Below, in pieces: positions 1,291 to 12,981 of a stretch of DNA of 64,000 bases (position 1 is the first letter of the stretch; each line of letters begins with the position of its first letter). The position numbers were made by a program, and so were the translations under genes. Source of the stretch: Candidatus Microgenomates bacterium (GTDB taxonomy: Bacteria > Patescibacteriota > Microgenomatia > UBA8517); NCBI GenBank assembly GCA_049519355.1, contig JBEKQV010000002.1:67479-131478 (forward strand). The letters run 5' to 3'. The notes beneath the pieces are model-generated. The model worked only from the letters and a program-made list of their open reading frames with translations. It searched no databases and was not told the origin of the DNA.

Positions 1291-1367
1291 GGTGGCTGTA
1301 GCTCAACGGCTAGAGCACTAGGTTGTGGACCTAGGGGTTGCGCGTCCGAATCGCGTCAGCCACCCCA
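1291..1367 (+). tRNA. tRNA-His (anticodon GTG) with genome-encoded G-1 and CCA
   Basis: Cloverleaf folded by hand: G-1 pairs with discriminator C73, acceptor GTGGCTG/CAGCCAC, D-arm GCTC..GAGC, anticodon stem CTAGG/CCTAG with loop TTGTGGA (GTG), T-stem GCGCG/CGCGT, 3' CCA at 1365-1367. The T-loop reads TCCGAAT, with C where U55 is expected. Confidence 0.85.
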
Positions 1368-2987
1368 ATTGTTTTGAGGTGCATAATGATCGTGTGTTTG
1401 TGCCGTAAATATGACATTATCTCCAGGTTCGAGCCGTTTAGAGGTAGAATACCTACTATCTAAGAAGTCTTTAATCTTCAGAAAAGGAATACGAGGCTGA
1501 ATATCCAATTTCTTGCCTGAAAGAGTCAAGTACGAGCCAATACCTCTAAGAACCAATCTTTTTGTACTCAGATCACCTTCAATAAATCTTTGCCGGGCTT
1601 TTGAGGCAAAATCAAATGTTTTTACGGTTAAGTCGTCCCATTCGTCGTTTCCCATGTCAAAATTATCCAAAGCTACTTTTGCCTGATCGCGCTCGGCAAT
1701 AAGTCTATCCATTTTTGATCTATACACTTCCTCCGGCATTCCGGATGACAATTTAAGATCCACAAGACCTTCTATTTTAGACGCCGCGCCATCGTAAGAA
1801 TCTTTTATGGCTCTAAGTTTTGATTCTCTAAATTTTCTATCTTCATTCGTAAGATATTTACACCATTCAGCAGCCCAAGTGGCAAAATCCGGGTCAACTT
1901 CAACGGTCTCCAAAAAATCCGCAACTTGTTTTTCAAGGGCGTTAGCGCTTATGTAAAGTTGATTGCAAATCTTGGTTTTACTTTTCTTCGTACACCTGTA
2001 ATATCTGAACTCTTTAGATTTACCATTTTTGTAACGCTTTATATGTCTTTCGCCACAGATCGCCATGCCACATTCACCACACCGGACAAGCCCACTAAGT
2101 GTAAATTCTAAAGGTTTTTGGGGTCGAGACTTGCCATTATCTTCAAGGATTTCCTGAACAAGTTCATATTCTTCGTCCTTGAGCATTCTCTCATGAATAC
2201 CTTTGTGAATTTTACCTTCATAAATAAATCTTCCTGCATAAAACGGATCACGGAGTATCCGGTACATCTGGCTTTTACCGATTTCCCGTCCCAGACTGTT
2301 CTTTAATCCCATTTTGCTTGCCTCCCTAGTTAACCCGCTTACGGAAAAATCTCTGGTCATATATAATTCAAACAGCTTTCTCATTAACGGAAAAGTTTTT
2401 GGATCGGGAAGTATGTCTCTTTTACCCTGAGGCTTGGTTTTATCGTTGATGAATCCGGGAGGTGCCAAAATCGGCGCGATTCCTTGTTCAACTTTGAAAT
2501 GAACACCCCTCATAGAGGCTTTACGGAGGTCCAGAATGTATTGATTAGCCATTCCACCCTCAAGGGATACCAATATCGCAGAATCTTCAGACTTGAAAGT
2601 TCTTTCCATGGTAACGATTTCATCAATTACACCTTTCTGGAGCATCCATTGAAGTTTTCCGGTATCAATTGGGTTTCTTGAAAGACGATTAAAATGCCAC
2701 GCAACTATTCCTTTTATGTCCTTCCTTTCGAGTGCAAGATCCGTCATCCGATCAAATTCAAGCCTGCCGGGTTGTTTAGCACTTTTGCTTTCTTCAAACC
2801 GCTTGAGAATCGGAAGATTCAACCTTTTTATAAGTTCATTATTTTCGCGGCTCTGATCCTCCAAACTTTGGACTTGCCGTTCATCGCTTTCCGAACTCTT
2901 GCGTGTATAAACCAAGTAATATTTTTTCACTACTGGCTCGGTTTTTTTACTTGTTCGTTCTTGAAAAATATCTTCGATAGTACCCAT
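1356..2987 (-). CDS. Large serine recombinase (resolvase/invertase catalytic domain + recombinase domain + zinc ribbon)
   Basis: 543 aa. N-terminal YLVYTRKSSESDERQVQSLEDQ matches the serine-recombinase catalytic motif around the nucleophilic Ser. A CGECG...C zinc-ribbon region and a C-terminal coiled coil are typical of large serine integrases. The last 12 nt, including the stop, overlap the 3' end of tRNA-His on the other strand. Confidence 0.85.
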   Translation of the reverse strand: MGTIEDIFQERTSKKTEPVVKKYYLVYTRKSSESDERQVQSLEDQSRENNELIKRLNLPILKRFEESKSAKQPGRLEFDRMTDLALERKDIKGIVAWHFNRLSRNPIDTGKLQWMLQKGVIDEIVTMERTFKSEDSAILVSLEGGMANQYILDLRKASMRGVHFKVEQGIAPILAPPGFINDKTKPQGKRDILPDPKTFPLMRKLFELYMTRDFSVSGLTREASKMGLKNSLGREIGKSQMYRILRDPFYAGRFIYEGKIHKGIHERMLKDEEYELVQEILEDNGKSRPQKPLEFTLSGLVRCGECGMAICGERHIKRYKNGKSKEFRYYRCTKKSKTKICNQLYISANALEKQVADFLETVEVDPDFATWAAEWCKYLTNEDRKFRESKLRAIKDSYDGAASKIEGLVDLKLSSGMPEEVYRSKMDRLIAERDQAKVALDNFDMGNDEWDDLTVKTFDFASKARQRFIEGDLSTKRLVLRGIGSYLTLSGKKLDIQPRIPFLKIKDFLDSRYSTSKRLEPGDNVIFTAQTHDHYAPQNNWGG

Positions 2988-2989
2988 AA

Positions 2990-3160
2990 TTATCTGTCTT
3001 TACTCGTTTGTGTCAATCCTCTTTTAGTTTTTGCCTCCGCGAGGACTCGATACAGCGCTACCAAATTATTTGCTTCATCCACAGCCTGCTTATCAGAAAG
3101 GTGAATATCCTTCTTTTTACAAATTTCTTTGAATTGTTTAATTGCTTCTTCCGGTAACAT
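2990..3160 (-). CDS. Small hypothetical protein (56 aa), possible recombination directionality factor or accessory protein of the integration module
   Basis: Hand-translated: MLPEEAIKQFKEICKKKDIHLSDKQAVDEANNLVALYRVLAEAKTKRGLTQTSKDR. A strong SD (GAAGGAGG) lies about 12 nt upstream. Its start is 1 nt after the upstream gene's stop (TGAtATG), and its stop is 3 nt before the recombinase ATG. Under 60 aa, so not in the ORF track. Confidence 0.35.
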   Translation of the reverse strand: MLPEEAIKQFKEICKKKDIHLSDKQAVDEANNLVALYRVLAEAKTKRGLTQTSKDR

Positions 3161-3161
3161 A

Positions 3162-3806
3162 TCAGCCGTAATCGTTTTGTTCCTCCTTCAATTGCTTAAT
3201 CGCATTCCAGAAGTTTTTTGGGTGTGGCGCGTAAGGCTTGCATGCGTATTCGTCCCAAATTTTATTGATCCTATCGAAACCCCACTTTTGAATCGTATGA
3301 GTAATCTGAAGTCTGACGGCATATTCCGGAGCCAAGGTATTAAATTCCGGTAAGGTACACCACTTAACAATTTTTTCTATTAGCTTATTTTCATCCTCAG
3401 AAAGTTTCTGTTCCCATTTATTAGAAACATCTCTATAGATATTCTTAGTCTCTGTGTTATTAGGCTCAGTATTATTAGGGAGAAGATTTTGTAACTTATC
3501 AGGAGAACATTCCTTCACAATAGATGTGAAGTTTTCTTCACCAATGAATTTGTAAATATTGGATTGCGAATAACCTCTCCGCTTAAAGTCAATAATTTGT
3601 TTTTTTCTTAAAGATCGGAGGTGTGCATTTATAATTCTCCTGCTTTTCCCCCGGATTCCGGCTATTGTTGCCTGAGACGGGAAAACCTTGCCTCTTTCGC
3701 CGTATTTGTAGCTTTTTAGCAAACATAGCGTCCTAAACTCGGCATCGCTAATGTTCTTGTCTTTAATTAGAAAGTTTGGTATTTGAGTAAAATCTTTGTT
3801 TTTCAT
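3162..3806 (-). CDS. Winged-helix/HTH DNA-binding protein, replication-initiator-like (plasmid/phage RepA/DnaD-N-like)
   Basis: 214 aa. N-terminal FTQIPNFLIKD...DAEFRTLCLL...GKVFPSQATIAGIRGKSRRIINAHLRSLRKKQIID is the usual phage/plasmid replication-initiator HTH pattern. It sits in the operon with the recombinase. Confidence 0.5.
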   Translation of the reverse strand: MKNKDFTQIPNFLIKDKNISDAEFRTLCLLKSYKYGERGKVFPSQATIAGIRGKSRRIINAHLRSLRKKQIIDFKRRGYSQSNIYKFIGEENFTSIVKECSPDKLQNLLPNNTEPNNTETKNIYRDVSNKWEQKLSEDENKLIEKIVKWCTLPEFNTLAPEYAVRLQITHTIQKWGFDRINKIWDEYACKPYAPHPKNFWNAIKQLKEEQNDYG

Positions 3807-3976
3807 GCTTTTTCTTTCTCTCTATCTTTCAATATGGGAACCAAAATGAAGCCTTTCCCGCCGCACGCATGGCATTGAACTCTTTTGAAGGAAACAGTAC
3901 CCCAACCGTTGCATACTGGGCATCTCTGGGCTATGTAGGATGGTTTTATCTGTGCCGGAATAATATTTTCTGTCAT
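3803..3976 (-). CDS. Small zinc-ribbon protein (57 aa, two CxxC pairs)
   Basis: Hand-translated: MTENIIPAQIKPSYIAQRCPVCNGWGTVSFKRVQCHACGGKGFILVPILKDREKEKA. Its stop overlaps the downstream ATG (ATGA). Not in the ORF track because it is under 60 aa. Confidence 0.4.
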   Translation of the reverse strand: MTENIIPAQIKPSYIAQRCPVCNGWGTVSFKRVQCHACGGKGFILVPILKDREKEKA

Positions 3977-3995
3977 ATTTCTTTCGTTTTGTCAC

Positions 3996-4021
3996 AAAAA
4001 AAGCGACCCTGAAAAGGTCGC
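3996..4021 (-). terminator. Intrinsic-terminator-like hairpin on the minus strand (GCGACC-7 nt loop-GGTCGC followed by T7)
   Basis: Forward 3996-4021 reads AAAAAAAGCGACCctgaaaaGGTCGC. On the minus strand this is a perfect 6-bp GC stem followed by 7 T. It sits about 20 nt upstream of the zinc-ribbon gene start, so its role is unclear: terminator of an upstream minus-strand transcript, or a 5' hairpin. Confidence 0.4.
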
Positions 4022-4252
4022 CAAATAAAAACTTTTGGAAACGATTGCTCTTCAGTAATACCTGAATAGTCAACCGTTCCAACTTGTTAGGTCGTTCTGA
4101 CTCCCCGAAGGCTTCCGTTCCGAATTACAATTTTCTGGTTGAGAAAACTAATTGTTCGTTAAGGGTCTCCTCGGATTCGCGTCAAAACGCCGCAAATCAA
4201 AACAAACTTTTTAAGATTTTAACTAATGAAATTATTACATATGAGGCTGTTT

Positions 4253-4288
4253 TTGTCAATCTTTATAAGAGATATTTAGTTGTATAAT
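4253..4288 (+). promoter_or_regulatory. Candidate promoter for the TIR-like gene (TTGTCA ... TGTATAAT)
   Basis: TTGTCA at 4253-4258 and TATAAT at 4283-4288 preceded by TG. The 24-nt spacing is too long for a canonical -35, so mainly the extended -10 is supported. ATG at 4302. Confidence 0.25.
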
Positions 4289-4301
4289 CCTGATTGAAAC
4301 T

Positions 4302-5207
4302 ATGAGAAAAGCGAGAGTGTTTATTAGTTGTGGGCAAGATCCGGAAGAAAAAAAGGTCGGCTTAAAAATTGTTGAGTATTTTAGAAAAAGAGGTTTTGAT
4401 CCTTACTTCGCGGGAGAAGTTCAAACACCCGAAGCGTTAACTAGAGATATTTTTGAATCACTAAAAAGATCTGAGTATTTTATAAGTATAAATTTTGAAC
4501 GATCGGAACTTAATTCAGGATCACTTTTTGTCCGACAAGAATTTGCCATTGCAGCATTTTTAGGAATAGAGATGTTAGCCTTTCACAAAGGAAAAGATGC
4601 AACTTTGACAGGGAAAGGCACAGGAATTGGAAATTATTTGGTATTAAAGAGTATTGAATTTGTTTCCGTTAAAGGTTTGTTAAAGAATTTGGACAAAAAC
4701 ACCATGCATTGGGATTCTAATTCTGTTCACGGATTGAAATTAGAGTTTGGTAATTACCATAGCAATGTTGTCGTTAGTAATAACCCCAACGGTCCTCTAA
4801 CAAATTGGATTCATGTAATCGTGTCTAATACGAGTTCAAAATTCTATTGTAAAAATTGTTGCGCTTATGTTGATGAAGTCGTTGACCTAATCAATAAAAA
4901 GGTAATTATTGGCAAAAATGATTATAAGACTGAACTCGTTTGGTCAGGCGCCGGAGCCTTCACAATTAACATTCCTCAAGGTGGAAAAAGAGATTTTGAC
5001 GCCTGTTATTGGGCGCAAGGCACGAACGCATTGGTTTTTCATCAACTTTCAATGTCAACTTTTTATAGATACCCCAATTTGAATTTTGGTAAATATAAAA
5101 TTCGTTATGTTATTATTTCTGAAAATTTCCCAGCTTCCAAAGTAGAGGCAATTATTGAGTTTCGTAAAACTGGAATATCAGTTCTGAGCTTTGTACAAAC
5201 TGAATGA
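4302..5207 (+). CDS. TIR-like domain protein (N-terminal ~100 aa) fused to an uncharacterised beta-rich C-terminal domain (~200 aa); candidate defence/NADase-type effector
   Basis: The N-terminus ARVFISCGQD...GFDPYFA...IFESLKRSEYFISINFERSELNSGSLFVRQEFAIAAF follows the TIR pattern (FISxxxxD ... S-yF-vlS ... S-W/F-xxxE, with a candidate catalytic Glu in VRQEF). I could not relate the C-terminal part to any known family. Confidence 0.5.
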   Translation: MRKARVFISCGQDPEEKKVGLKIVEYFRKRGFDPYFAGEVQTPEALTRDIFESLKRSEYFISINFERSELNSGSLFVRQEFAIAAFLGIEMLAFHKGKDATLTGKGTGIGNYLVLKSIEFVSVKGLLKNLDKNTMHWDSNSVHGLKLEFGNYHSNVVVSNNPNGPLTNWIHVIVSNTSSKFYCKNCCAYVDEVVDLINKKVIIGKNDYKTELVWSGAGAFTINIPQGGKRDFDACYWAQGTNALVFHQLSMSTFYRYPNLNFGKYKIRYVIISENFPASKVEAIIEFRKTGISVLSFVQTE

Positions 5208-5238
5208 CAGTCTCGCAGCATACAACACACCTTTTCTA

Positions 5239-5463
5239 TTAAAACATTTCTTTTACCTTAATGTGGAGAGCGCGACCCAATTTGGCTAGCGTCTTTACCG
5301 AAACATTCCTTTTTCCATTTTCAAGCTGATTGTAAAAACTATAATCTAGCCCAGCCTTATACGCTAAATCTTCCTGCGTCATTCCTGCTTCGCGCCGGAG
5401 TTTTCCCAACCTCGCACCGATCTTTTTGTTGACTATAGTCATAGCCAAAGTATGGCTAGACAT
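5239..5463 (-). CDS. XRE-family helix-turn-helix transcriptional regulator
   Basis: 74 aa. IGARLGKLRREAGMTQEDLAYKAGLDYSFYNQLENGKRNVSVKTLAKLGRAL is the classic Cro/C1-type HTH. Confidence 0.8.
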   Translation of the reverse strand: MSSHTLAMTIVNKKIGARLGKLRREAGMTQEDLAYKAGLDYSFYNQLENGKRNVSVKTLAKLGRALHIKVKEMF

Positions 5464-5477
5464 TTACATAAAGTGTA

Positions 5478-5507
5478 TTGACTATAACCAATATTTAACC
5501 ATATACT
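5478..5507 (+). promoter_or_regulatory. Candidate sigma70-like promoter (TTGACT-18 nt-TATACT) for the 5520 gene
   Basis: TTGACT at 5478-5483 and TATACT at 5502-5507, with the ATG at 5520. The 5' UTR would be very short. Confidence 0.3.
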
Positions 5508-5510
5508 CAA

Positions 5511-6029
5511 TTGATACAGATGAATATTTTCCTTTTTCTTCTGGCAGTTTTTGTAATTGCTGTTGTTTATCAAACATTTAAGCTCAAGCGTGAATCCGGA
5601 AAAGATTTTGAAAATAATTTAGTAAGAGCTTGGAAACAATACGATACGATCATGACTTACGATAAAGAACCGTTTGTGAGAGATGGCAAACCGGATCCTG
5701 TCTTAATTAAGTTCCAAGAGAGAACCAAAAAGGACTACGAAATGTATAAAAAATTGATAATGAGGTATCCCGACATTCCACGGCACAATAAAGCCAGAAT
5801 GGCAATCGACGATAATTGGTGTTTGTTGCTACAGACAGTATTTATGCTCTCTGGCTACCAAGTCATTGATTCCGCTGGACGCAGAAATGAGAATTTTACA
5901 AAGAAAAAATATGTATCAGACCAAACTGACCAGAAGCGAAGAAATTCTGAGATTGAACTAGATGAATATGAGAATTTTTTTAAGAATAAATTAAAAGAAT
6001 CTGAAGGAAAAGCCCCCCTACCGCTATAA
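5511..6029 (+). CDS. Hypothetical membrane-anchored protein (single N-terminal TM, charged soluble domain)
   Basis: The ORF track starts at TTG 5511. The in-frame ATG at 5520 (MNIFLFLLAVFVIAVVY...) is the more likely start. No recognisable domain. Confidence 0.45.
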   Translation: MIQMNIFLFLLAVFVIAVVYQTFKLKRESGKDFENNLVRAWKQYDTIMTYDKEPFVRDGKPDPVLIKFQERTKKDYEMYKKLIMRYPDIPRHNKARMAIDDNWCLLLQTVFMLSGYQVIDSAGRRNENFTKKKYVSDQTDQKRRNSEIELDEYENFFKNKLKESEGKAPLPL

Positions 6030-6084
6030 ATCGCTTTCTTAAAACAATCGTTTAGGCGTAAAAAAAGTGTTAGAATAAGCCAGA

Positions 6085-7827
6085 ATGGCGAAAGATTATT
6101 CCACTTGGTCAAAACCGGAGCTAATCCGTGAGTTAAAAAAAATCGGCGAAAGAAAAAAATACGGAATTGTTTGGGAAGATAAACCTGAGGAAGTTGTTGA
6201 ATTGTGTAAGACAAAGCTCCCAGTTCTCGAAGAACTTAAAAAGCGTGAAATAGCAACATCAAAGGAAGATCCCACCAATATTCTTATCGAGGGCGACAAT
6301 TACCACGCTCTTTCTGTCTTAAATTACACACATAAAGGAGAAGTTGACCTAATTTATATTGACCCTCCATACAATACGGGTAGCAAAGATTTTGTTTATA
6401 ACGACCGTTATGTTGATACAGAAGATGGCTATAGGCATAGCAAGTGGCTCAATTTTATGGACAAAAGACTAAGATTAGCAAAAAATCTTTTAAAAAATGA
6501 TGGAATTATATGTATTAGCATTGACGAGAATGAGCAAGCACAACTAAAACTTTTATGTGATGAAATATTTGGTGAAACTAATAGAATTTCTACCCTGCAT
6601 ATTCAGGTTAGATATTCCGGAAAGACTTTGAATGAGAAAAACGACTGGCAGCCCGTAATGGAATATGTATTAATTTATGCAAAAAATGGAAACTCCTTTA
6701 GAGCAAACAAACCAACAGTTGAATATTCAATTGATAAATTTAATTACGAAATAAAAGAATTGACTCAGGGGACTGAGATTCTGGTAAAAAACAGAAGGGT
6801 AACTATATTTAAAAAAGGTGAATGGAAAATACTAAAACACACAGAATCTGGTAAAAATCTTTTAAAAGAGACTTGGGTTTCTGGAAGCATATATTCAGGA
6901 ACAGGAAATGGAACAATGGTTCAAAATGTAATCGAGCCGAGAGTGCTGGTTGACGGATATGGAAGCTTATACAAGATCGAAGGTCTAGGAGAAGATGGTT
7001 TGGGATTCCGTTATTTTACCGGTCCTCAAAAGGTTGGAGCAACAAGAAGCAAGATGTACACAGGTATTCCGACGGTTAGAGCAGAAGAATTAAATGAAGG
7101 AAATGCTGTTAGATATTTATCTATTCCTAACTATTACGATTTTAGTCCTGACTTTGGAAATATAAGAAGTGAGGGCGGCGTTCCTTTTAATAGCGGTAAA
7201 AAACCAGTCAAAATGTTGAAACAAATTATTAACTACCATAAGAATAAAAATGCTACTATTCTCGATTTTTTTGCCGGTTCTGGTACAACTGCACACGCTG
7301 TTATGGAAATAAACAAATTCGACTCCGGATCCCGAAAATTTATTCTGTGTACAGACAATGAGGATAATACTGGTAGCGGTACTAAAATAGCTGAGGACAT
7401 ATGCTATCAAAGAATAATGAATGTTATTAAGGGCTATAACCATAAAACCGGATTGGGCGGTACATTAAAGTATTTTAAAACAGCGTTTGTTGACAGTGCG
7501 CCATCGGACGAGAATAAAAGAATATTGGTTGACAAATCTACTGAAATGCTTTGTCTTAAGGAGGATTGTTTTGACAATCTCACTGAGGGTAAAGAATACA
7601 AAGCATTTACCAATAGCAAAAACAATCTTCTTGGAATCATTTATGATGATGCCGGAATAGAACCTTTCAAGAAATTTATTAGAGAGACAAATAAGAAATT
7701 TGTAGTTTATGTTTTTTCCCTCGATGAAAGTGCACGAGAAGAAGAATTTGAAGATATTAGAAAATTGGTGGAGCTCAAACCTATTCCTGCGGTTATATTA
7801 AATGTCTATAAGAGAATTTTCAAATGA
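6085..7827 (+). CDS. mod: Type III restriction-modification system methyltransferase subunit (Mod), N6-adenine, beta-class
   Basis: 580 aa. Motif IV DPPYNTG lies upstream of motif I ILDFFAGSGTTAHAV, the order and sequences characteristic of Type III Mod proteins (EcoP15I-like). 4-nt overlap (ATGA) with the downstream res. Confidence 0.8.
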   Translation: MAKDYSTWSKPELIRELKKIGERKKYGIVWEDKPEEVVELCKTKLPVLEELKKREIATSKEDPTNILIEGDNYHALSVLNYTHKGEVDLIYIDPPYNTGSKDFVYNDRYVDTEDGYRHSKWLNFMDKRLRLAKNLLKNDGIICISIDENEQAQLKLLCDEIFGETNRISTLHIQVRYSGKTLNEKNDWQPVMEYVLIYAKNGNSFRANKPTVEYSIDKFNYEIKELTQGTEILVKNRRVTIFKKGEWKILKHTESGKNLLKETWVSGSIYSGTGNGTMVQNVIEPRVLVDGYGSLYKIEGLGEDGLGFRYFTGPQKVGATRSKMYTGIPTVRAEELNEGNAVRYLSIPNYYDFSPDFGNIRSEGGVPFNSGKKPVKMLKQIINYHKNKNATILDFFAGSGTTAHAVMEINKFDSGSRKFILCTDNEDNTGSGTKIAEDICYQRIMNVIKGYNHKTGLGGTLKYFKTAFVDSAPSDENKRILVDKSTEMLCLKEDCFDNLTEGKEYKAFTNSKNNLLGIIYDDAGIEPFKKFIRETNKKFVVYVFSLDESAREEEFEDIRKLVELKPIPAVILNVYKRIFK

Positions 7828-10022
7828 TTTACTTAAAGGATTACCAAAAAGAAGCTGTAGCGAGTCTAAAAGAAACTGTAGAAAAGTTATTGAGGTCATC
7901 TGAGCGTGAGATTTGTATTTTTCAAGCTCCTACCGGAAGTGGAAAAACTGTTATGGTTTCGGAACTTCTTAAAGATTTAGTGAGAGATAGAAAAGACGAC
8001 AAAAAGTTTTCTTTTGTCTGGATTTCAGTCCGGATGCTGCACGAGCAAAGTAAGGAAAAGCTTGAAAAATATTATGCAGATGACAGGTTACTTCAATGTT
8101 CATATTTTGAGGATTTGGAAGATAAAAAGATTGGCGAAAACGAAATCTTGTTTATTAACTGGCAAAGCATAAATAAAAAAGACATAAACATTTATGTCAG
8201 AGAAAACGAGCAAGACAATAATCTTAACAGCGTAATTCAAAATACAAAAGAAGAAGGGCGCGAAATAATACTTATTATCGATGAAAGCCACCACACAGCG
8301 GGATCCGAAAAGTCAAAGGAACTGATAGAAGTAATTAGTCCGAAAGTAACGATTGAAGTTTCTGCTACCCCGCAACTAAAAGAAGGTATCGGCGGATACG
8401 AGAAAATTAATCTGAGTGATGTAAAAGCGGAGGAAATGATTAAGTCTGAAATTTCGGTAAATCCAGAGTTCACAAATGTTAAGGTTGGGTCAGAAAGTGC
8501 GGATGAACTTGTCATAGGACAAGCGTTAAAGAAACGAGAAGAATTAGCAAACCTATACAGGAAATCTGGATCAAATATAAACCCCCTTGTATTGGTTCAG
8601 TTGCCAGATCAAAAAAGCAGCTTGATTAGTAAAAAAGAAGATGTTCTAAAAATTCTTAACGATAAATTCGCTATCAATGAGAAAAATGGAAAATTAGCAG
8701 TTTGGTTATCAGAAGAAAAAACAGAAACACTTGCCAATATCGAGAAAAACGATAATGAAGTCGAGGTTTTGGTTTTCAAGCAAGCCCCTGCACTTGGCTG
8801 GGATTGTCCAAGAGCGTCAATACTTATAATTTTTAGGGAAACCAAGAGTTTTGTTTTTACGATTCAAACGATTGGTAGGATTATGCGTATGCCAGAATTG
8901 AAATACTATTCCGAAGAAGAATTGAATAAAGGCTTTGTATTTACCAATCTTCCGAATATTGCAATAACCGAGGATTACGCAAAAGATTATGTCACGATTT
9001 ACGAAGCCAAAAGAAGCGCGGAACTTTACAAAGACATTTCCTTGCCGTCAATATTTCTAAGGCGACAAAGGGAAAGAACAAGATTATCCGGAGAATTTGT
9101 TACCATCTTTCAAAAAGTTGCAAATGAAAACGATCTCAAAAATCGAGTAGTATTTACTCCTTCAAAACTAGTAAATCCAATAATTGCAGATGGTAGAATC
9201 GTCAATGTTGACCAAGCGGGCGAAATTGAACATAAAGGAGTAATTGAAGTTAAATTAAATCCGCTTGAACTTCAACAGCTTTTTGATAGTTTTATCTCGC
9301 AGAATTGCTCTCCATACGCTCCAGTAGATTCAAGCGATAGAATGAAAACCGCCATTTATAATTTTTTTACAATAAATTTCAAGATTAGGAAATTTGATCC
9401 GACTGTCCAGCGTATAGTTCTAGGTAAGGAAAATGTGCAGGCATTCGTTGACACAATAAACTTGGCTAAAGAAAAATACCAATTGGAAATTGTTAGGCAA
9501 CTTAGTGAAAAAAGGGAACTTCAGACAACCCCAGAATGGGAAGTTCCGGTAATAGTTACCTATAACAGCAGGTATATCAGTGAAAATAAACCAAAGTCTA
9601 TTCTTAAGCCCTATTACACCAAGAAAGCCAGTGAACCGGAAATGTTATTTATTGAGCTCTTAGAAGGATCAGATAAGGTTAAATGGTGGTTCAAGAATGG
9701 TGAGAGCGAAATTAAGTATTTTGCAGTCTTGTATAAAGATGAAGCGGAGATTGAACACGCTTTTTATGTTGACTTTATCGTTCAATTTACCGATGGAAAG
9801 ATAGGTTTATTCGATACCAAAAAGGGAATAACTGCCAAAGATGCAAAAATGCGAGCAAAAGGTTTAGCACGCTACATAAAAGAGCAGTCAAAGAAAGGAA
9901 GAAAGATATGGGGTGGTATAGCGGTATATGTTAACGGTAGTTGGAGATATAACGAAAGTGAAGATTATGTCTATGAAGAAGGTAATCTGTCTAAAGATTG
10001 GAAATTTCTTAATCTTAATTAG
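7824..10022 (+). CDS. res: Type III restriction enzyme Res subunit (SF2 helicase + C-terminal PD-(D/E)xK nuclease)
   Basis: 732 aa. Walker A QAPTGSGKT, DEAH-type IIDESHH, and a C-terminal VDFIV...FDTKKG that is PD-(D/E)xK-like. Translationally coupled to mod. Confidence 0.75.
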   Translation: MIYLKDYQKEAVASLKETVEKLLRSSEREICIFQAPTGSGKTVMVSELLKDLVRDRKDDKKFSFVWISVRMLHEQSKEKLEKYYADDRLLQCSYFEDLEDKKIGENEILFINWQSINKKDINIYVRENEQDNNLNSVIQNTKEEGREIILIIDESHHTAGSEKSKELIEVISPKVTIEVSATPQLKEGIGGYEKINLSDVKAEEMIKSEISVNPEFTNVKVGSESADELVIGQALKKREELANLYRKSGSNINPLVLVQLPDQKSSLISKKEDVLKILNDKFAINEKNGKLAVWLSEEKTETLANIEKNDNEVEVLVFKQAPALGWDCPRASILIIFRETKSFVFTIQTIGRIMRMPELKYYSEEELNKGFVFTNLPNIAITEDYAKDYVTIYEAKRSAELYKDISLPSIFLRRQRERTRLSGEFVTIFQKVANENDLKNRVVFTPSKLVNPIIADGRIVNVDQAGEIEHKGVIEVKLNPLELQQLFDSFISQNCSPYAPVDSSDRMKTAIYNFFTINFKIRKFDPTVQRIVLGKENVQAFVDTINLAKEKYQLEIVRQLSEKRELQTTPEWEVPVIVTYNSRYISENKPKSILKPYYTKKASEPEMLFIELLEGSDKVKWWFKNGESEIKYFAVLYKDEAEIEHAFYVDFIVQFTDGKIGLFDTKKGITAKDAKMRAKGLARYIKEQSKKGRKIWGGIAVYVNGSWRYNESEDYVYEEGNLSKDWKFLNLN

Positions 10023-10048
10023 AACCTAGAAATTTTGTATTAGTTTTT

Positions 10049-10459
10049 ATGCCCGTATCTAAAAAGGAAGAATTGTGTGCCTATCATGAAGCCGGGCATG
10101 CGGTGTTGGCTGTTATATTAGGTATGCCCGTTGAATCTGTGAGTATGAAGGATCGCGTAACGAAATATAAAGTTGAAGGTAAAATACGCGATAGTATCTT
10201 GGTATCACTTGCAGGGGCTTTTGCAGCACAACATATCGATAAAATGGGACTGACCGCAGCAGATGACCTTTACAAAGCAAAGCGACTGCTAATCGAAGGA
10301 GAAAATATCGAATCATTCGAAAGAGAGGCAAAGAGACTTGTGAAAAAACATAAAAAAATAATCCACGCTGTAGCCTTAGAATTGTTATCCAAAAACTGCT
10401 TAACCGGAGAGGAGGTAAAAAGGATTGTGGACATACATTTCTTACCTCAACAAACTTAG
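10049..10459 (+). CDS. Stand-alone FtsH-type (peptidase M41) zinc-metallopeptidase domain protein, no AAA+ or TM region
   Basis: 136 aa. AYHEAGHAV is the M41 HExxH site. TAADDLYKAKRL matches the FtsH third zinc ligand region (GASNDLERAT). The whole protein corresponds only to the C-terminal protease domain of FtsH. Confidence 0.6.
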   Translation: MPVSKKEELCAYHEAGHAVLAVILGMPVESVSMKDRVTKYKVEGKIRDSILVSLAGAFAAQHIDKMGLTAADDLYKAKRLLIEGENIESFEREAKRLVKKHKKIIHAVALELLSKNCLTGEEVKRIVDIHFLPQQT

Positions 10460-10719
10460 CTTAGCATGTTAATTATCTAAGTGTATGGTACCCTTGGTCG
10501 CATGTGCAGTATTAGGTTAAATATTAATACGATTCCCCCAATATAGTATTTACAATGATCTAGCCTCAAATGGGTATGTGATTTACTCAAAGTTGTGCTT
10601 GAGACAATTGATGAAACTGATAGTCATTAGATAACATTTGTTTTAGAAATTCTTTTTCTTTGTCTTGATTAAGTTTCCAATAAGTTCTAACATCGTTCAC
10701 TAGGTCACCCAATATTTTC

Positions 10720-11432: not shown

Positions 11433-12776
11433 TTATTTTCTGGAGATCGTATAATTTGTCGGGTAATATAAAAAGGCAGCAGGAGAATCTTCAACCAAGA
11501 ATCTTTGGAAATCCAAATAAATTTGCTTTCTGTCCTCGATACTAATTGTACTTCGGCCGTCTTCAAGAAGTTTATCAATCCTGGGATTTTGATAGTGCGT
11601 AATATTTGTCGCGGTTTGTGTTGAGTGCCAGATTGAGTACTGATCGGGATCGTTTGGAATATCAAAAATCGCCAAGAAAGCCTGGTAATCAGAAGGGACA
11701 TTGGAAATTACCTGTAAGCTAACATTGACACCAATTGCCTGCCAATCTTTCGAAATGCTTTCGGCTTGGGTTAAAAGAATGGGTGGAGTCGTTAGTGTGA
11801 TTGAAAGGCTGCCGGTTTTTGCACTTGTTTCATAATCCTCAACCATTTGCTTGGCTTTTACGGGATCGTAATCGTAGGGCTTCACTTGAGGATTATATGC
11901 CCAAGAATCTATTGAAATCGGACTTATAGCTCTTTCGCCGCCAAGTGCGCCTTTATTGATGGCGTATGAAAGCGCCTGACGGAGGTTTTTATCTGATAGG
12001 GTCTTATCTTGAGTATCAAAAAATACCGCTACATATTCCCCGGTATTTGAAGTTTTATCTATTTTGACTTTTGGCCAAGACGAAAAAGGACTGGGATCAA
12101 GAATTCCTATTATTTGATCAACGTCTCCCAGTTCAAATGCCAATTTTGTATCATCTTCGGTAGGATAAAATTTATAAGCGATTCTATCGCCGTTTTTATT
12201 AACTAAATTTATTTGTTGAACATATGACCCGTTTAAGGAAATACTTGAAACTTTCCAAGCCCCGGTACCCAGAAGCCCCATCCTGAAAGTCGGCCTGGAA
12301 ACAACAGAAGGAAAAGCCGAATATGGATTCTGAAGTTCAAAAGTTATAGTAGCATCATCAGGCCGGAGAACAGTGACATCCGAAAACTCATAAGTAATAC
12401 CTGAACTTGTAACTTTTTTTCCGTCTTGCCAATAAACTCCTGAACGCAAAGTGAAAACCCAGGTCTTACCGCCATCAGGCGATTCCCAAGACGAAGCGAG
12501 ATCGGGTTCGACGTTTCCGTTTTTATCAAGCTTGGTTAGACCGTCACCGACCATCTCGAGAACATTATCAGGAAGCGAACTAACGGTATAAAGTCCTGTT
12601 AACCCTATCCTTGTGCTTTGACCTGAGGACAAAACAGGCAAAAGGTAACGAAGGAGAAAGAAAAGAACAATGCCAAGTCCTACACAAGCTAAGATAATGA
12701 TTTTAAAACGGCTAAAAAATGCTCCCACTAGCCTTGCAATGTATCGGAAATTAAGCATCGGTAAGTTATACCACAA
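11433..12776 (-). CDS. ABC transporter substrate-binding protein, family 5 (peptide/nickel type)
   Basis: 447 aa. N-terminal anchor. Length and motifs (e.g. YDPVKAKQM, DPDQYSIWHS) are typical of SBP_bac_5. Confidence 0.65.
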   Translation of the reverse strand: MWYNLPMLNFRYIARLVGAFFSRFKIIILACVGLGIVLFFLLRYLLPVLSSGQSTRIGLTGLYTVSSLPDNVLEMVGDGLTKLDKNGNVEPDLASSWESPDGGKTWVFTLRSGVYWQDGKKVTSSGITYEFSDVTVLRPDDATITFELQNPYSAFPSVVSRPTFRMGLLGTGAWKVSSISLNGSYVQQINLVNKNGDRIAYKFYPTEDDTKLAFELGDVDQIIGILDPSPFSSWPKVKIDKTSNTGEYVAVFFDTQDKTLSDKNLRQALSYAINKGALGGERAISPISIDSWAYNPQVKPYDYDPVKAKQMVEDYETSAKTGSLSITLTTPPILLTQAESISKDWQAIGVNVSLQVISNVPSDYQAFLAIFDIPNDPDQYSIWHSTQTATNITHYQNPRIDKLLEDGRSTISIEDRKQIYLDFQRFLVEDSPAAFLYYPTNYTISRK

Positions 12777-12981
12777 GCTGCAGAATAGAAATCGCTATAA
12801 ACAAAAAAGCCAGGACAAAGGTAAGCCTAAAAACCAATTTCTCTAAACCTCTCCGGCTAAATGAAGAACCTCCTCCAAAGCCTGATGACCTACTAAAACC
12901 TGTACCGCGAGCTTGAACTAAAATAAGTCCGATAAGAGCAACCGACACAATTATTTGAATAACGGTTAGAATTTGCTTCAC
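12766..12981 (-). CDS. secG: Preprotein translocase subunit SecG
   Basis: 71 aa. Two TM helices flank a Gly-rich loop (LVQARGTGFSRSSGFGGGSSF), as in SecG. Confidence 0.7.
   Translation of the reverse strand: MKQILTVIQIIVSVALIGLILVQARGTGFSRSSGFGGGSSFSRRGLEKLVFRLTFVLAFLFIAISILQLVV

Follow-up and report, generated by a model that had tools for sequence, protein, structure and literature searches.

We analyzed a 64,000-nucleotide stretch of DNA (hereafter, the window) from a Candidatus Microgenomates bacterium (contig JBEKQV010000002.1, positions 67,479 to 131,478), focusing on the gene at 4302..5207 (+). From profile comparisons and conserved motifs, we conclude that the N-terminal domain of the encoded protein is probably a divergent sister of DUF4062/NIR within the superfamily that unites TIR domains with the N-glycosidases of the nucleoside deoxyribosyltransferase (NDT) type. 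This domain is obligately fused to a C-terminal β-sandwich, and the gene is a single-gene cassette. We propose, with moderate confidence, that this one protein is an immune effector complete in itself, in which a TIR-like NADase is combined with a sensor, and that its gene moves horizontally. Single-protein TIR-like NADase defense is known already; what appears to be new here is the divergence of the catalytic core and the fold of the sensor.

The gene and its family

The gene is an intact open reading frame (ORF) of 301 codons that begins with ATG and is followed by TGA. Its homologs share the N-terminus M-[RK]-K-A-[RK]-V-F-I-S, and position 4302 is therefore the true start; one metagenome gene call has a start five codons downstream. 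An identical copy has been deposited as MGA2910691.1, a "hypothetical protein" on an 872-kb contig of a metagenome-assembled genome (MAG) of Candidatus Microgenomates (candidate phyla radiation, CPR; Patescibacteria). The window protein has no match in Pfam (E≤1), PADLOC, NCBIfam or PHROGs, and no paralog of the gene was found within the window.

A word-indexed search returned 55 relatives, some 50 of which are full length (∼300 residues), and an exhaustive hidden Markov model search with the C-terminal half as query (E≤1e-3) returned at least 751 clusters at 50% identity. Both halves are present, in the same order, in 170 of 202 retrieved proteins. Another 31 entries contain the C-terminal domain only; they are 121–240 residues long, each with fewer than 85 residues ahead of that domain, and are presumably shortened gene calls. 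The two domains are therefore obligately fused, and no other architecture was seen among the top family matches. Family members are present in at least 104 of 185,579 species genomes (∼0.06%), nearly all of them MAGs, from more than 10 bacterial and archaeal phyla (hosts include Patescibacteria, Acidobacteriota, Chloroflexota, Planctomycetota, Verrucomicrobiota, Nitrososphaeria, Bathyarchaeia, Methanocellales and Nanoarchaeota). No member was found in 50,697 phage records or 72,556 plasmid records. This distribution is accessory and patchy, of the type associated with horizontal gene transfer.

The N-terminal domain

Residue conservation was counted in a non-redundant alignment of 123 family members, in which the N-terminal motifs are conserved far beyond chance. 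F7, E/D58, Y59 and Q79 are invariant; S9, G11, A37, S74 and E80 are conserved in 122 sequences, and Q12, E16 and D/N64 in 121; the corresponding counts are 120 for G73, 119 for C10 and for R67, 118 for A84, 115 for F76 and 113 for Y35. These near-invariant residues look like an active-site set. They lie in the βA-loop motif V-F-I-S-C-G-Q...E16 defined by the family alignment (residues 6–16, 4317..4349, +), in the conserved polar stretch S57-E58-Y59 ... N/D64 ... R67 of βC and the next loop (4470..4502, +), and in G73-S74-L-F76-x-x-Q79-E80-F-A-I-A84 at the start of αC (4518..4553, +). S57 itself is kept in 102 of the 123 sequences, K or R follows E16 in 52, and L or F follows E80. The codon of E80, the predicted catalytic glutamate, is at 4539..4541 (+). 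In the alignments this residue falls on E87 of Eva01 (DUF4062), on the glutamate of the TIR_2 motif C-E-L/M-G-A and on the nucleophilic glutamate of NDT, which bears out the original prediction, made from the sequence of the window, of a glutamate at the catalytic position. The motifs quoted in that prediction are all present: RVFISCGQD at residues 5–13, SEYFISINFERSE at 57–69, LFVRQEF at 75–81 and CKNCC at 183–187.

AlphaFold2, run on the family alignment, gave a model with a pLDDT of 89.7 and a pTM of 0.84. Residues 5–133 are modeled as a β-α-β Rossmannoid, with a confident flavodoxin-like fold composed of βA (5–9), αA (14–29), βB (33–36), αB (43–55), βC (59–65), αC (75–87), βD (90–96), a low-confidence loop (∼97–117) and αE (123–133). 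On the basis of this predicted structure, the N-terminal domain comprises about 134 residues (1–134, 4302..4703, +), not the ∼100 first supposed. The model has the flavodoxin-like five-stranded parallel sheet and the conserved glutamate on αC that are expected of a canonical TIR domain, and it also has the fold similarity expected of an NDT-type enzyme, with a glutamate at the position equivalent to the nucleophile. Fold searches with the modeled domain place it between the CMP/nucleotide N-glycosidases or NDT and the TIR domains: the scores are 14.0 for NDT 7o62, 13.4 for the CMP hydrolase MilB, 12.6 for NDT 6evs and 12.5 for Rcl/DNPH1, followed by 12.3 for the SARM1 TIR, 12.0 for the RPS4/RRS1 TIR, 11.7 for a B. 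cereus TIR and 10.4 for ThsB. The Foldseek TMt values are 0.71 for BcmB, 0.65 for DNPH1, 0.60–0.63 for SARM1 and 0.59 for NDT. Sequence-profile searches of the PDB (with 49- and 123-sequence profiles) gave solely a spurious match to PH0822 (E∼0.1).

Sub-threshold Pfam matches were found to TIR_2 in 30 of 123 members (E≤0.1, best 6.5e-5), to DUF4062 in 7 (E 0.02–0.1) and to TIR in 2, and no member matched an NDT-type Pfam family; one member has been named a TIR-domain protein by NCBI. The window protein is below the gathering score of PF13271 (24.7 bits), with no match at E≤1, while Eva01, the positive control, scores 91.8 bits. Nor is the TIR_2 gathering score (28 bits) reached: the family consensus scores 17.9 bits, and the window protein has no match.

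We then compared profiles directly with hhalign. The DUF4062 reference consisted of Eva01 (S. aureus pMW2) and four plasmid homologs at 28–41% identity, and the TIR_2 reference was rebuilt from plasmid homologs at the same depth of five sequences, a first version having been too shallow (6 matches). The family aligns with DUF4062 over 101 columns, from βA to βD (E = 8.7e-5, probability 60%, a moderate rather than decisive match given the five-sequence references), and with TIR_2 over 79 columns (E = 0.013, probability 3.4%). As a calibration, DUF4062 and TIR_2 align with each other over 95 columns (E = 0.0099, probability 4.2%). The match to NDT covers 59 columns (E = 0.37, probability 0.16%), a weak negative, because the NDT reference is narrow (≥65% identity).

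F7, S9, E80 and A84 of the family pair with F11, S13, E87 and A91 of DUF4062, E16 and the K/R at 17 with E22-R23, and S57-E/D58 with S61-D62, the invariant S-D of DUF4062. The domain thus has the N-terminal aromatic residue, the E-R of αA, the S-D before βC and the catalytic E-[YF] of DUF4062; the "Q/W/E" motif of DUF4062 could not be mapped confidently onto the family. The βA-loop motif has its counterparts in FISST..DL..ER of DUF4062 and FISH/Y of TIR_2, and C10-G11-Q12, R67 and Q79 are hallmarks of the family itself. By sequence, the domain is thus neither a canonical TIR nor, by the curated threshold, a member of PF13271. The original assignment of a TIR-like N-terminus therefore stands as far as a TIR-superfamily-like Rossmannoid is concerned, with DUF4062/NIR rather than canonical TIR as its closest relative.

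The C-terminal domain

The family-specific C-terminal domain (residues 136–301, 4707..5204, +) is modeled as a β-sandwich of nine strands (residues ∼145–300). It makes up about 55% of the protein, less than the two-thirds originally estimated; the rest of that description, a β-rich domain that matches no described family, was borne out. Fold searches returned nothing beyond generic Ig-like and ApaG-like matches, and no function follows from the fold. Judging from the model, we regard the domain as a generic Ig-like β-sandwich specific to this family. It contains 11 near-invariant columns, several of them polar, and the conserved residues include W137, H171, N176, C186, E211, W214, R230 and D233. 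The cysteine cluster CKNCC, to which the original prediction had drawn attention, has no significance at the family level: position 183 is Ala in 109 of 123 sequences, position 187 is mostly Tyr, and only C186 is conserved (119 of 123). We therefore rejected the cluster as a metal site.

The two domains evolve at different rates. Mean pairwise identity is 44% for the N-terminal domain and 30% for the C-terminal domain, and the N-terminal value is the higher in 98% of pairs, the pattern expected when an effector is coupled to a sensor.

Comparison with known systems

The nearest known proteins are those of the DUF4062/NIR class (PF13271): Swarozyc (KpSwz), Evangelion (Eva01), Vulcan, VstA of Vesta, Avs2-NIR and human TEP1. 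DUF4062/NIR has been described as a TIR-like anti-phage NADase family, and glutamate-dependent conversion of NAD+ to ADP-ribose (ADPR) and nicotinamide has been reported for KpSwz, PsAvs2, Vulcan, VstA and TEP1 (bioRxiv 10.64898/2026.05.01.722283, 10.64898/2026.06.25.731849, 10.64898/2026.09.04.749371). A gene of this class would be expected to lie near known defense genes in about 20% of cases, against a background of 3.9%. The present family differs from them in its βA loop (FISCGQ, in place of FISST..DL), in its additional invariant residues C10, G11, Q12, R67 and Q79, and in its hosts, which belong almost only to uncultured lineages (CPR, Acidobacteriota, Chloroflexota, archaea). Its all-β C-terminal sandwich contrasts with the helical stalk, AUX region or HEAT repeats of the named NIR systems. 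It also has no alkaline-phosphatase (VstB) partner, and no neighbor family, alkaline phosphatase included, occurs in more than 4 of 150 flanking ORFs; the system is therefore not Vesta. Published surveys of DUF4062 relied on PF13271 matches or on complete RefSeq genomes, and would thus miss a sub-threshold family that lives almost wholly in MAGs. We found no description of the two-domain architecture in the literature.

The family also differs from canonical TIR systems (TIR_2; ThsB, AbTir, TIR-STING, TIR-SAVED, SPARTA TIR-APAZ). All matches of the family to canonical TIR models are sub-threshold, and its profile match to TIR_2 is no better than that of DUF4062 to TIR_2. No ThsA, STING, SAVED or Argonaute is fused to the protein or encoded as its partner, and the PADLOC models of TIR systems are silent; as regards Thoeris in particular, the window protein has no match to the PADLOC ThsB models and no adjacent ThsA (SIR2-SLOG or Macro/TM). 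To NDT, CMP N-glycosidase and DNPH1 (PF05014 and relatives; 7o62, 4ohr, 4jen, 2khz), the likeness is one of fold, with no sequence-profile signal. The Y-x-A/C-G-P/S βA loop and the D-x-G-T-x-x-E spacing of these enzymes are absent from the family, which has V-F-I-S-C-G-Q, and NDT enzymes are housekeeping single-domain oligomers that lack a β-sandwich.

Neighborhoods of the homologs

Recurrence of neighbors was evaluated by all-versus-all BLAST of 1182 flanking ORFs from 88 loci, and the 150 nearest ORFs were scanned with Pfam and PADLOC. No conserved partner was found: the largest neighbor cluster, integrase-like in appearance, occurs in 8 of 88 loci, and no ThsA-like (SIR2/SLOG/Macro) gene recurs among the loci surveyed, in keeping with the original observation that no such partner is nearby. 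The 150 nearest ORFs match 109 Pfam families, of which helicase/ResIII was found 4 times and integrase, HTH_3 and TIR_2 twice each; most others are housekeeping singletons. At the DNA level, the loci have nothing in common except the family gene. Thus, with only this gene common to the loci and no recurring neighbor, the family gene is a single-gene cassette.

Defense genes lie within 8 kb in 4 of 10 loci with Pfam-annotated neighbors (a small sample, not chosen at random), and 4 of the 10 loci are on integrative or conjugative elements. The four defense contexts are a Type III restriction-modification (R-M) system in the window, Schlafen/AlbA_2 in locus L006, GmrSD with a methylase and a reverse transcriptase (RT)/PD-(D/E)xK in L007, and type I-C CRISPR-Cas in L098. 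The single IMG/VR match (L088, UViG_2703719286_000001, 6126–9559) is part of a prophage. It carries an SU10-type adaptor and a fragment of an SPP1-like portal, and the family gene in it adjoins a large serine recombinase, as it does in the window.

Proposed function and alternatives

We infer a defense role for this family. NADase chemistry is suggested by homology to the experimentally characterized DUF4062 proteins, and a sensor role of the C-terminal domain by its faster evolution and by analogy with Swarozyc, Evangelion and Vulcan, in which an effector is paired with a sensor; abortive infection would be the presumed outcome. In the proposed mechanism, E80 on αC would cleave the nicotinamide-ribose bond of NAD+, and the C-terminal β-sandwich would hold the enzyme inactive until it binds a cue to infection, which would be a protein of the phage or a small molecule derived from the infection. 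Binding of the cue would probably lead to oligomerization, and the ensuing collapse of NAD+ would arrest the infected cell. The conserved polar residues of the C-terminal domain might, speculatively, form a defined ligand pocket, favoring a conserved cue over a hypervariable protein interface; a conserved cue has been proposed for VstA. If this proposal is true, the DUF4062/NIR class gains a sequence-divergent branch that the Pfam, PADLOC and NCBIfam models have missed, and TIR-like NADase effectors gain a new all-β sensor module. NIR-type immunity would then reach archaea and the ultra-small CPR bacteria, whose defense repertoires are poorly known and which have no room for large systems, and the conserved pocket would offer a tractable route to what such effectors sense.

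Several observations weigh against this immune-effector proposal. No curated TIR, DUF4062 or defense model reaches its threshold for the window protein, and the DUF4062 profile match on which the assignment turns is moderate, as stated above. Nucleotide N-glycosidases marginally outrank TIR domains in the fold searches. The estimate of defense association derives from just the 10 annotated loci described above. Four of these contain nothing related to defense or to mobile elements, and most homologs have housekeeping genes as their immediate neighbors. A protein sensor engaged purely in an arms race would be expected to keep fewer than the 11 near-invariant columns of the C-terminal domain. 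Finally, the family-specific residues C10, G11, Q12, R67 and Q79 are not hallmarks of TIR or DUF4062, and the substrate or product could differ. A bolder and more doubtful version of the proposal is that the family constitutes a third TIR/NIR lineage, with a FISCGQ...R...GSLFxxQE active site and a fused β-sandwich whose conserved polar pocket (H171, N176, C186, E211, R230, D233) would sense a conserved small molecule or host factor and not a variable protein of the phage, and that it serves as a main NAD-type effector of CPR, Acidobacteriota, Chloroflexota and several archaeal phyla. In such a lineage, C10, Q12, R67 and Q79 might confer a reaction that differs in substrate or product from the conversion of NAD+ to ADPR.

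The ranking of the fold searches raises the alternative that the protein is a nucleotide N-glycosidase or transferase acting on (deoxy)nucleoside monophosphates (CMP or hmCMP, as for MilB and BcmB; dNMP, as for DNPH1; or as for NDT), which would deplete or poison the nucleotide pool or serve in salvage. We consider this unlikely: the sequence-profile signal for NDT is absent from all 123 members and poor in hhalign, the βA motif is of the FIS type found in TIR and DUF4062 and not the Y-x-A/C-G-P/S of NDT and DNPH1, and a rare, patchy, mobile distribution is atypical of a salvage enzyme. Moreover, the DUF4062 domain of PsAvs2 drew the same "CMP hydrolase" call from structure, yet it proved to be a NADase. 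The gene might also have no immune function. It could encode an accessory enzyme with a metabolic, regulatory or toxin-like role, such as the turnover of NAD or nucleotides or the action of an addiction toxin of mobile elements, and simply hitch-hike on islands. The housekeeping neighbors and the 4 of 10 unremarkable contexts fit this, as do antitoxin-like genes just upstream in some loci (HicB-like in L098, a weak MazE match in L096) and a conserved polar constellation in the C-terminal domain that is compatible with a fixed ligand. It is nevertheless improbable for a gene that is present in ∼0.06% of species genomes yet in more than 10 phyla, that is found repeatedly on elements with a recombinase and beside genes for R-M, CRISPR-Cas, GmrSD and Schlafen, and that is homologous to an established family of immune NADases.

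Two further alternatives retain the immune role and supply the protein with a partner. As a ThsB-like signal generator, it would sense phage and make an ADPR-derived messenger for an unlinked effector. A TIR-like catalytic domain with a small extra domain, in a protein of ∼300 residues, does resemble the sensor TIRs, and one member (L027) has a genuine TIR_2 protein directly upstream. However, neither a ThsA-like nor any other effector recurs in 86 loci, the PADLOC ThsB models are without a match, the nearest characterized relatives (DUF4062) act as terminal NADase effectors, and CPR genomes of less than 1 Mb are unlikely to retain an unlinked effector for a mobile cassette; we therefore regard signal generation as quite unlikely. 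The other possibility is a two-gene system with the adjacent XRE/C-protein-like gene (5239–5463, −), with ORF172 (5511–6029, +), or with both, the region that the original prediction had singled out as a possible partner. Of 86 loci, 3 have an XRE gene within 300 bp of the family gene, about 8 times the density in the flanks, and in two loci (L004 and L015) it is directly upstream and co-oriented. This leaves 83 of 86 loci with no XRE within that distance, on which ground we rejected XRE as a conserved partner, and ORF172 adjoins no other family member. In the window, the XRE gene is downstream of the family gene and convergent with it, its product matches R-M "control protein" models (E = 8e-14), and a 47-bp region of overlapping divergent promoters separates it from ORF172-Mod-Res; it belongs to the R-M module. 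The region 5239–6029 is thus not a conserved partner; a two-gene system is largely refuted by the neighborhood survey, and we give it very little credence.

Genomic context in the window

As originally noted, the family gene sits in a mobile island. This low-GC integrative island (1292..10600) has a GC fraction of 0.35, compared with about 0.40 outside it. Its left edge is marked by tRNA-His (1292–1367), abutted by a large serine recombinase (1356–2987, −) and followed by a replication-initiator-like helix-turn-helix gene (3162–3806, −); no att-like direct repeats were found for the island. Beyond the family gene and the convergent XRE gene, ORF172 heads an operon with the Type III Mod (6085–7827) and Res (7824–10022) genes. 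ORF172 encodes 172 residues, hydrophobic at the N-terminus, that matched no family in any of the libraries. Directly 3′ of Res, an ORF of 136 codons (10049–10459, +) carries a HEAGH zinc-metalloprotease motif with a weak match to Peptidase_M41 (the FtsH protease domain); its product looks like a stand-alone mini-protease at the right edge of the island.

A perfect TATAAT (4283..4288, +), read directly from the sequence, lies 13 nt 5′ of the ATG of the family gene and could be the −10 element of a promoter specific to this gene. It was not called by a consensus promoter scan. Upstream of the gene, a good −35 element at the canonical distance is lacking, as is an obvious Shine-Dalgarno sequence. 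Because of this TATAAT, the convergent orientation of the XRE gene, and the tie between the XRE promoter and the R-M genes, the family gene appears to form a transcription unit of its own.

Other loci show distinct arrangements around the family gene. In L007 (15519–16900), an SBP_bac_5-SecG flank is similar by domain order, with no detectable DNA similarity, to that at 11433–12981 of the window, and the cargo between flank and family gene differs (GmrSD, methylase, RT plus PD-(D/E)xK, FtsK); by this comparison, related Microgenomates-like genomes may share a hot spot of variable content. In L027, from an Acidobacteriota MAG, the TIR_2 protein (1372–2394, 341 residues, 49.7 bits) is co-oriented with and directly 5′ of the family member (2536–3408), a possible tandem of TIR and NIR-like genes. 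In L098 (673–9865), the upstream HicB-like antitoxin gene overlaps the family member, and a complete type I-C CRISPR-Cas operon (Cas3, Cas5d, Csd1, Cas7, Cas4, Cas1) begins ∼460 bp 3′ of it. In two loci of the P0005 subclade (L094, 1349–1885; L095, 388–924), an unannotated ORF of 178 codons runs 4 nt into the family gene at its start, an arrangement that suggests an operon partner specific to this lineage; none was seen in the other loci.

On the minus strand of the island (3995–4259, −), a strong sigma-70-like promoter (4259→4231, −; 11 of 12 matches, with TG) is followed by a highly structured RNA of ∼230 nt, with a minimum free energy of −71.2 kcal/mol (z = −4.15; 0 of 200 shuffles as stable). 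The RNA matched nothing in Rfam, and no copy was found in the other family loci. A clean intrinsic terminator (4022→4002, −) closes it ∼20 nt upstream of the start codon of the minus-strand operon of the island. It may be an attenuator leader, or a small RNA, that controls the replication/recombination module.

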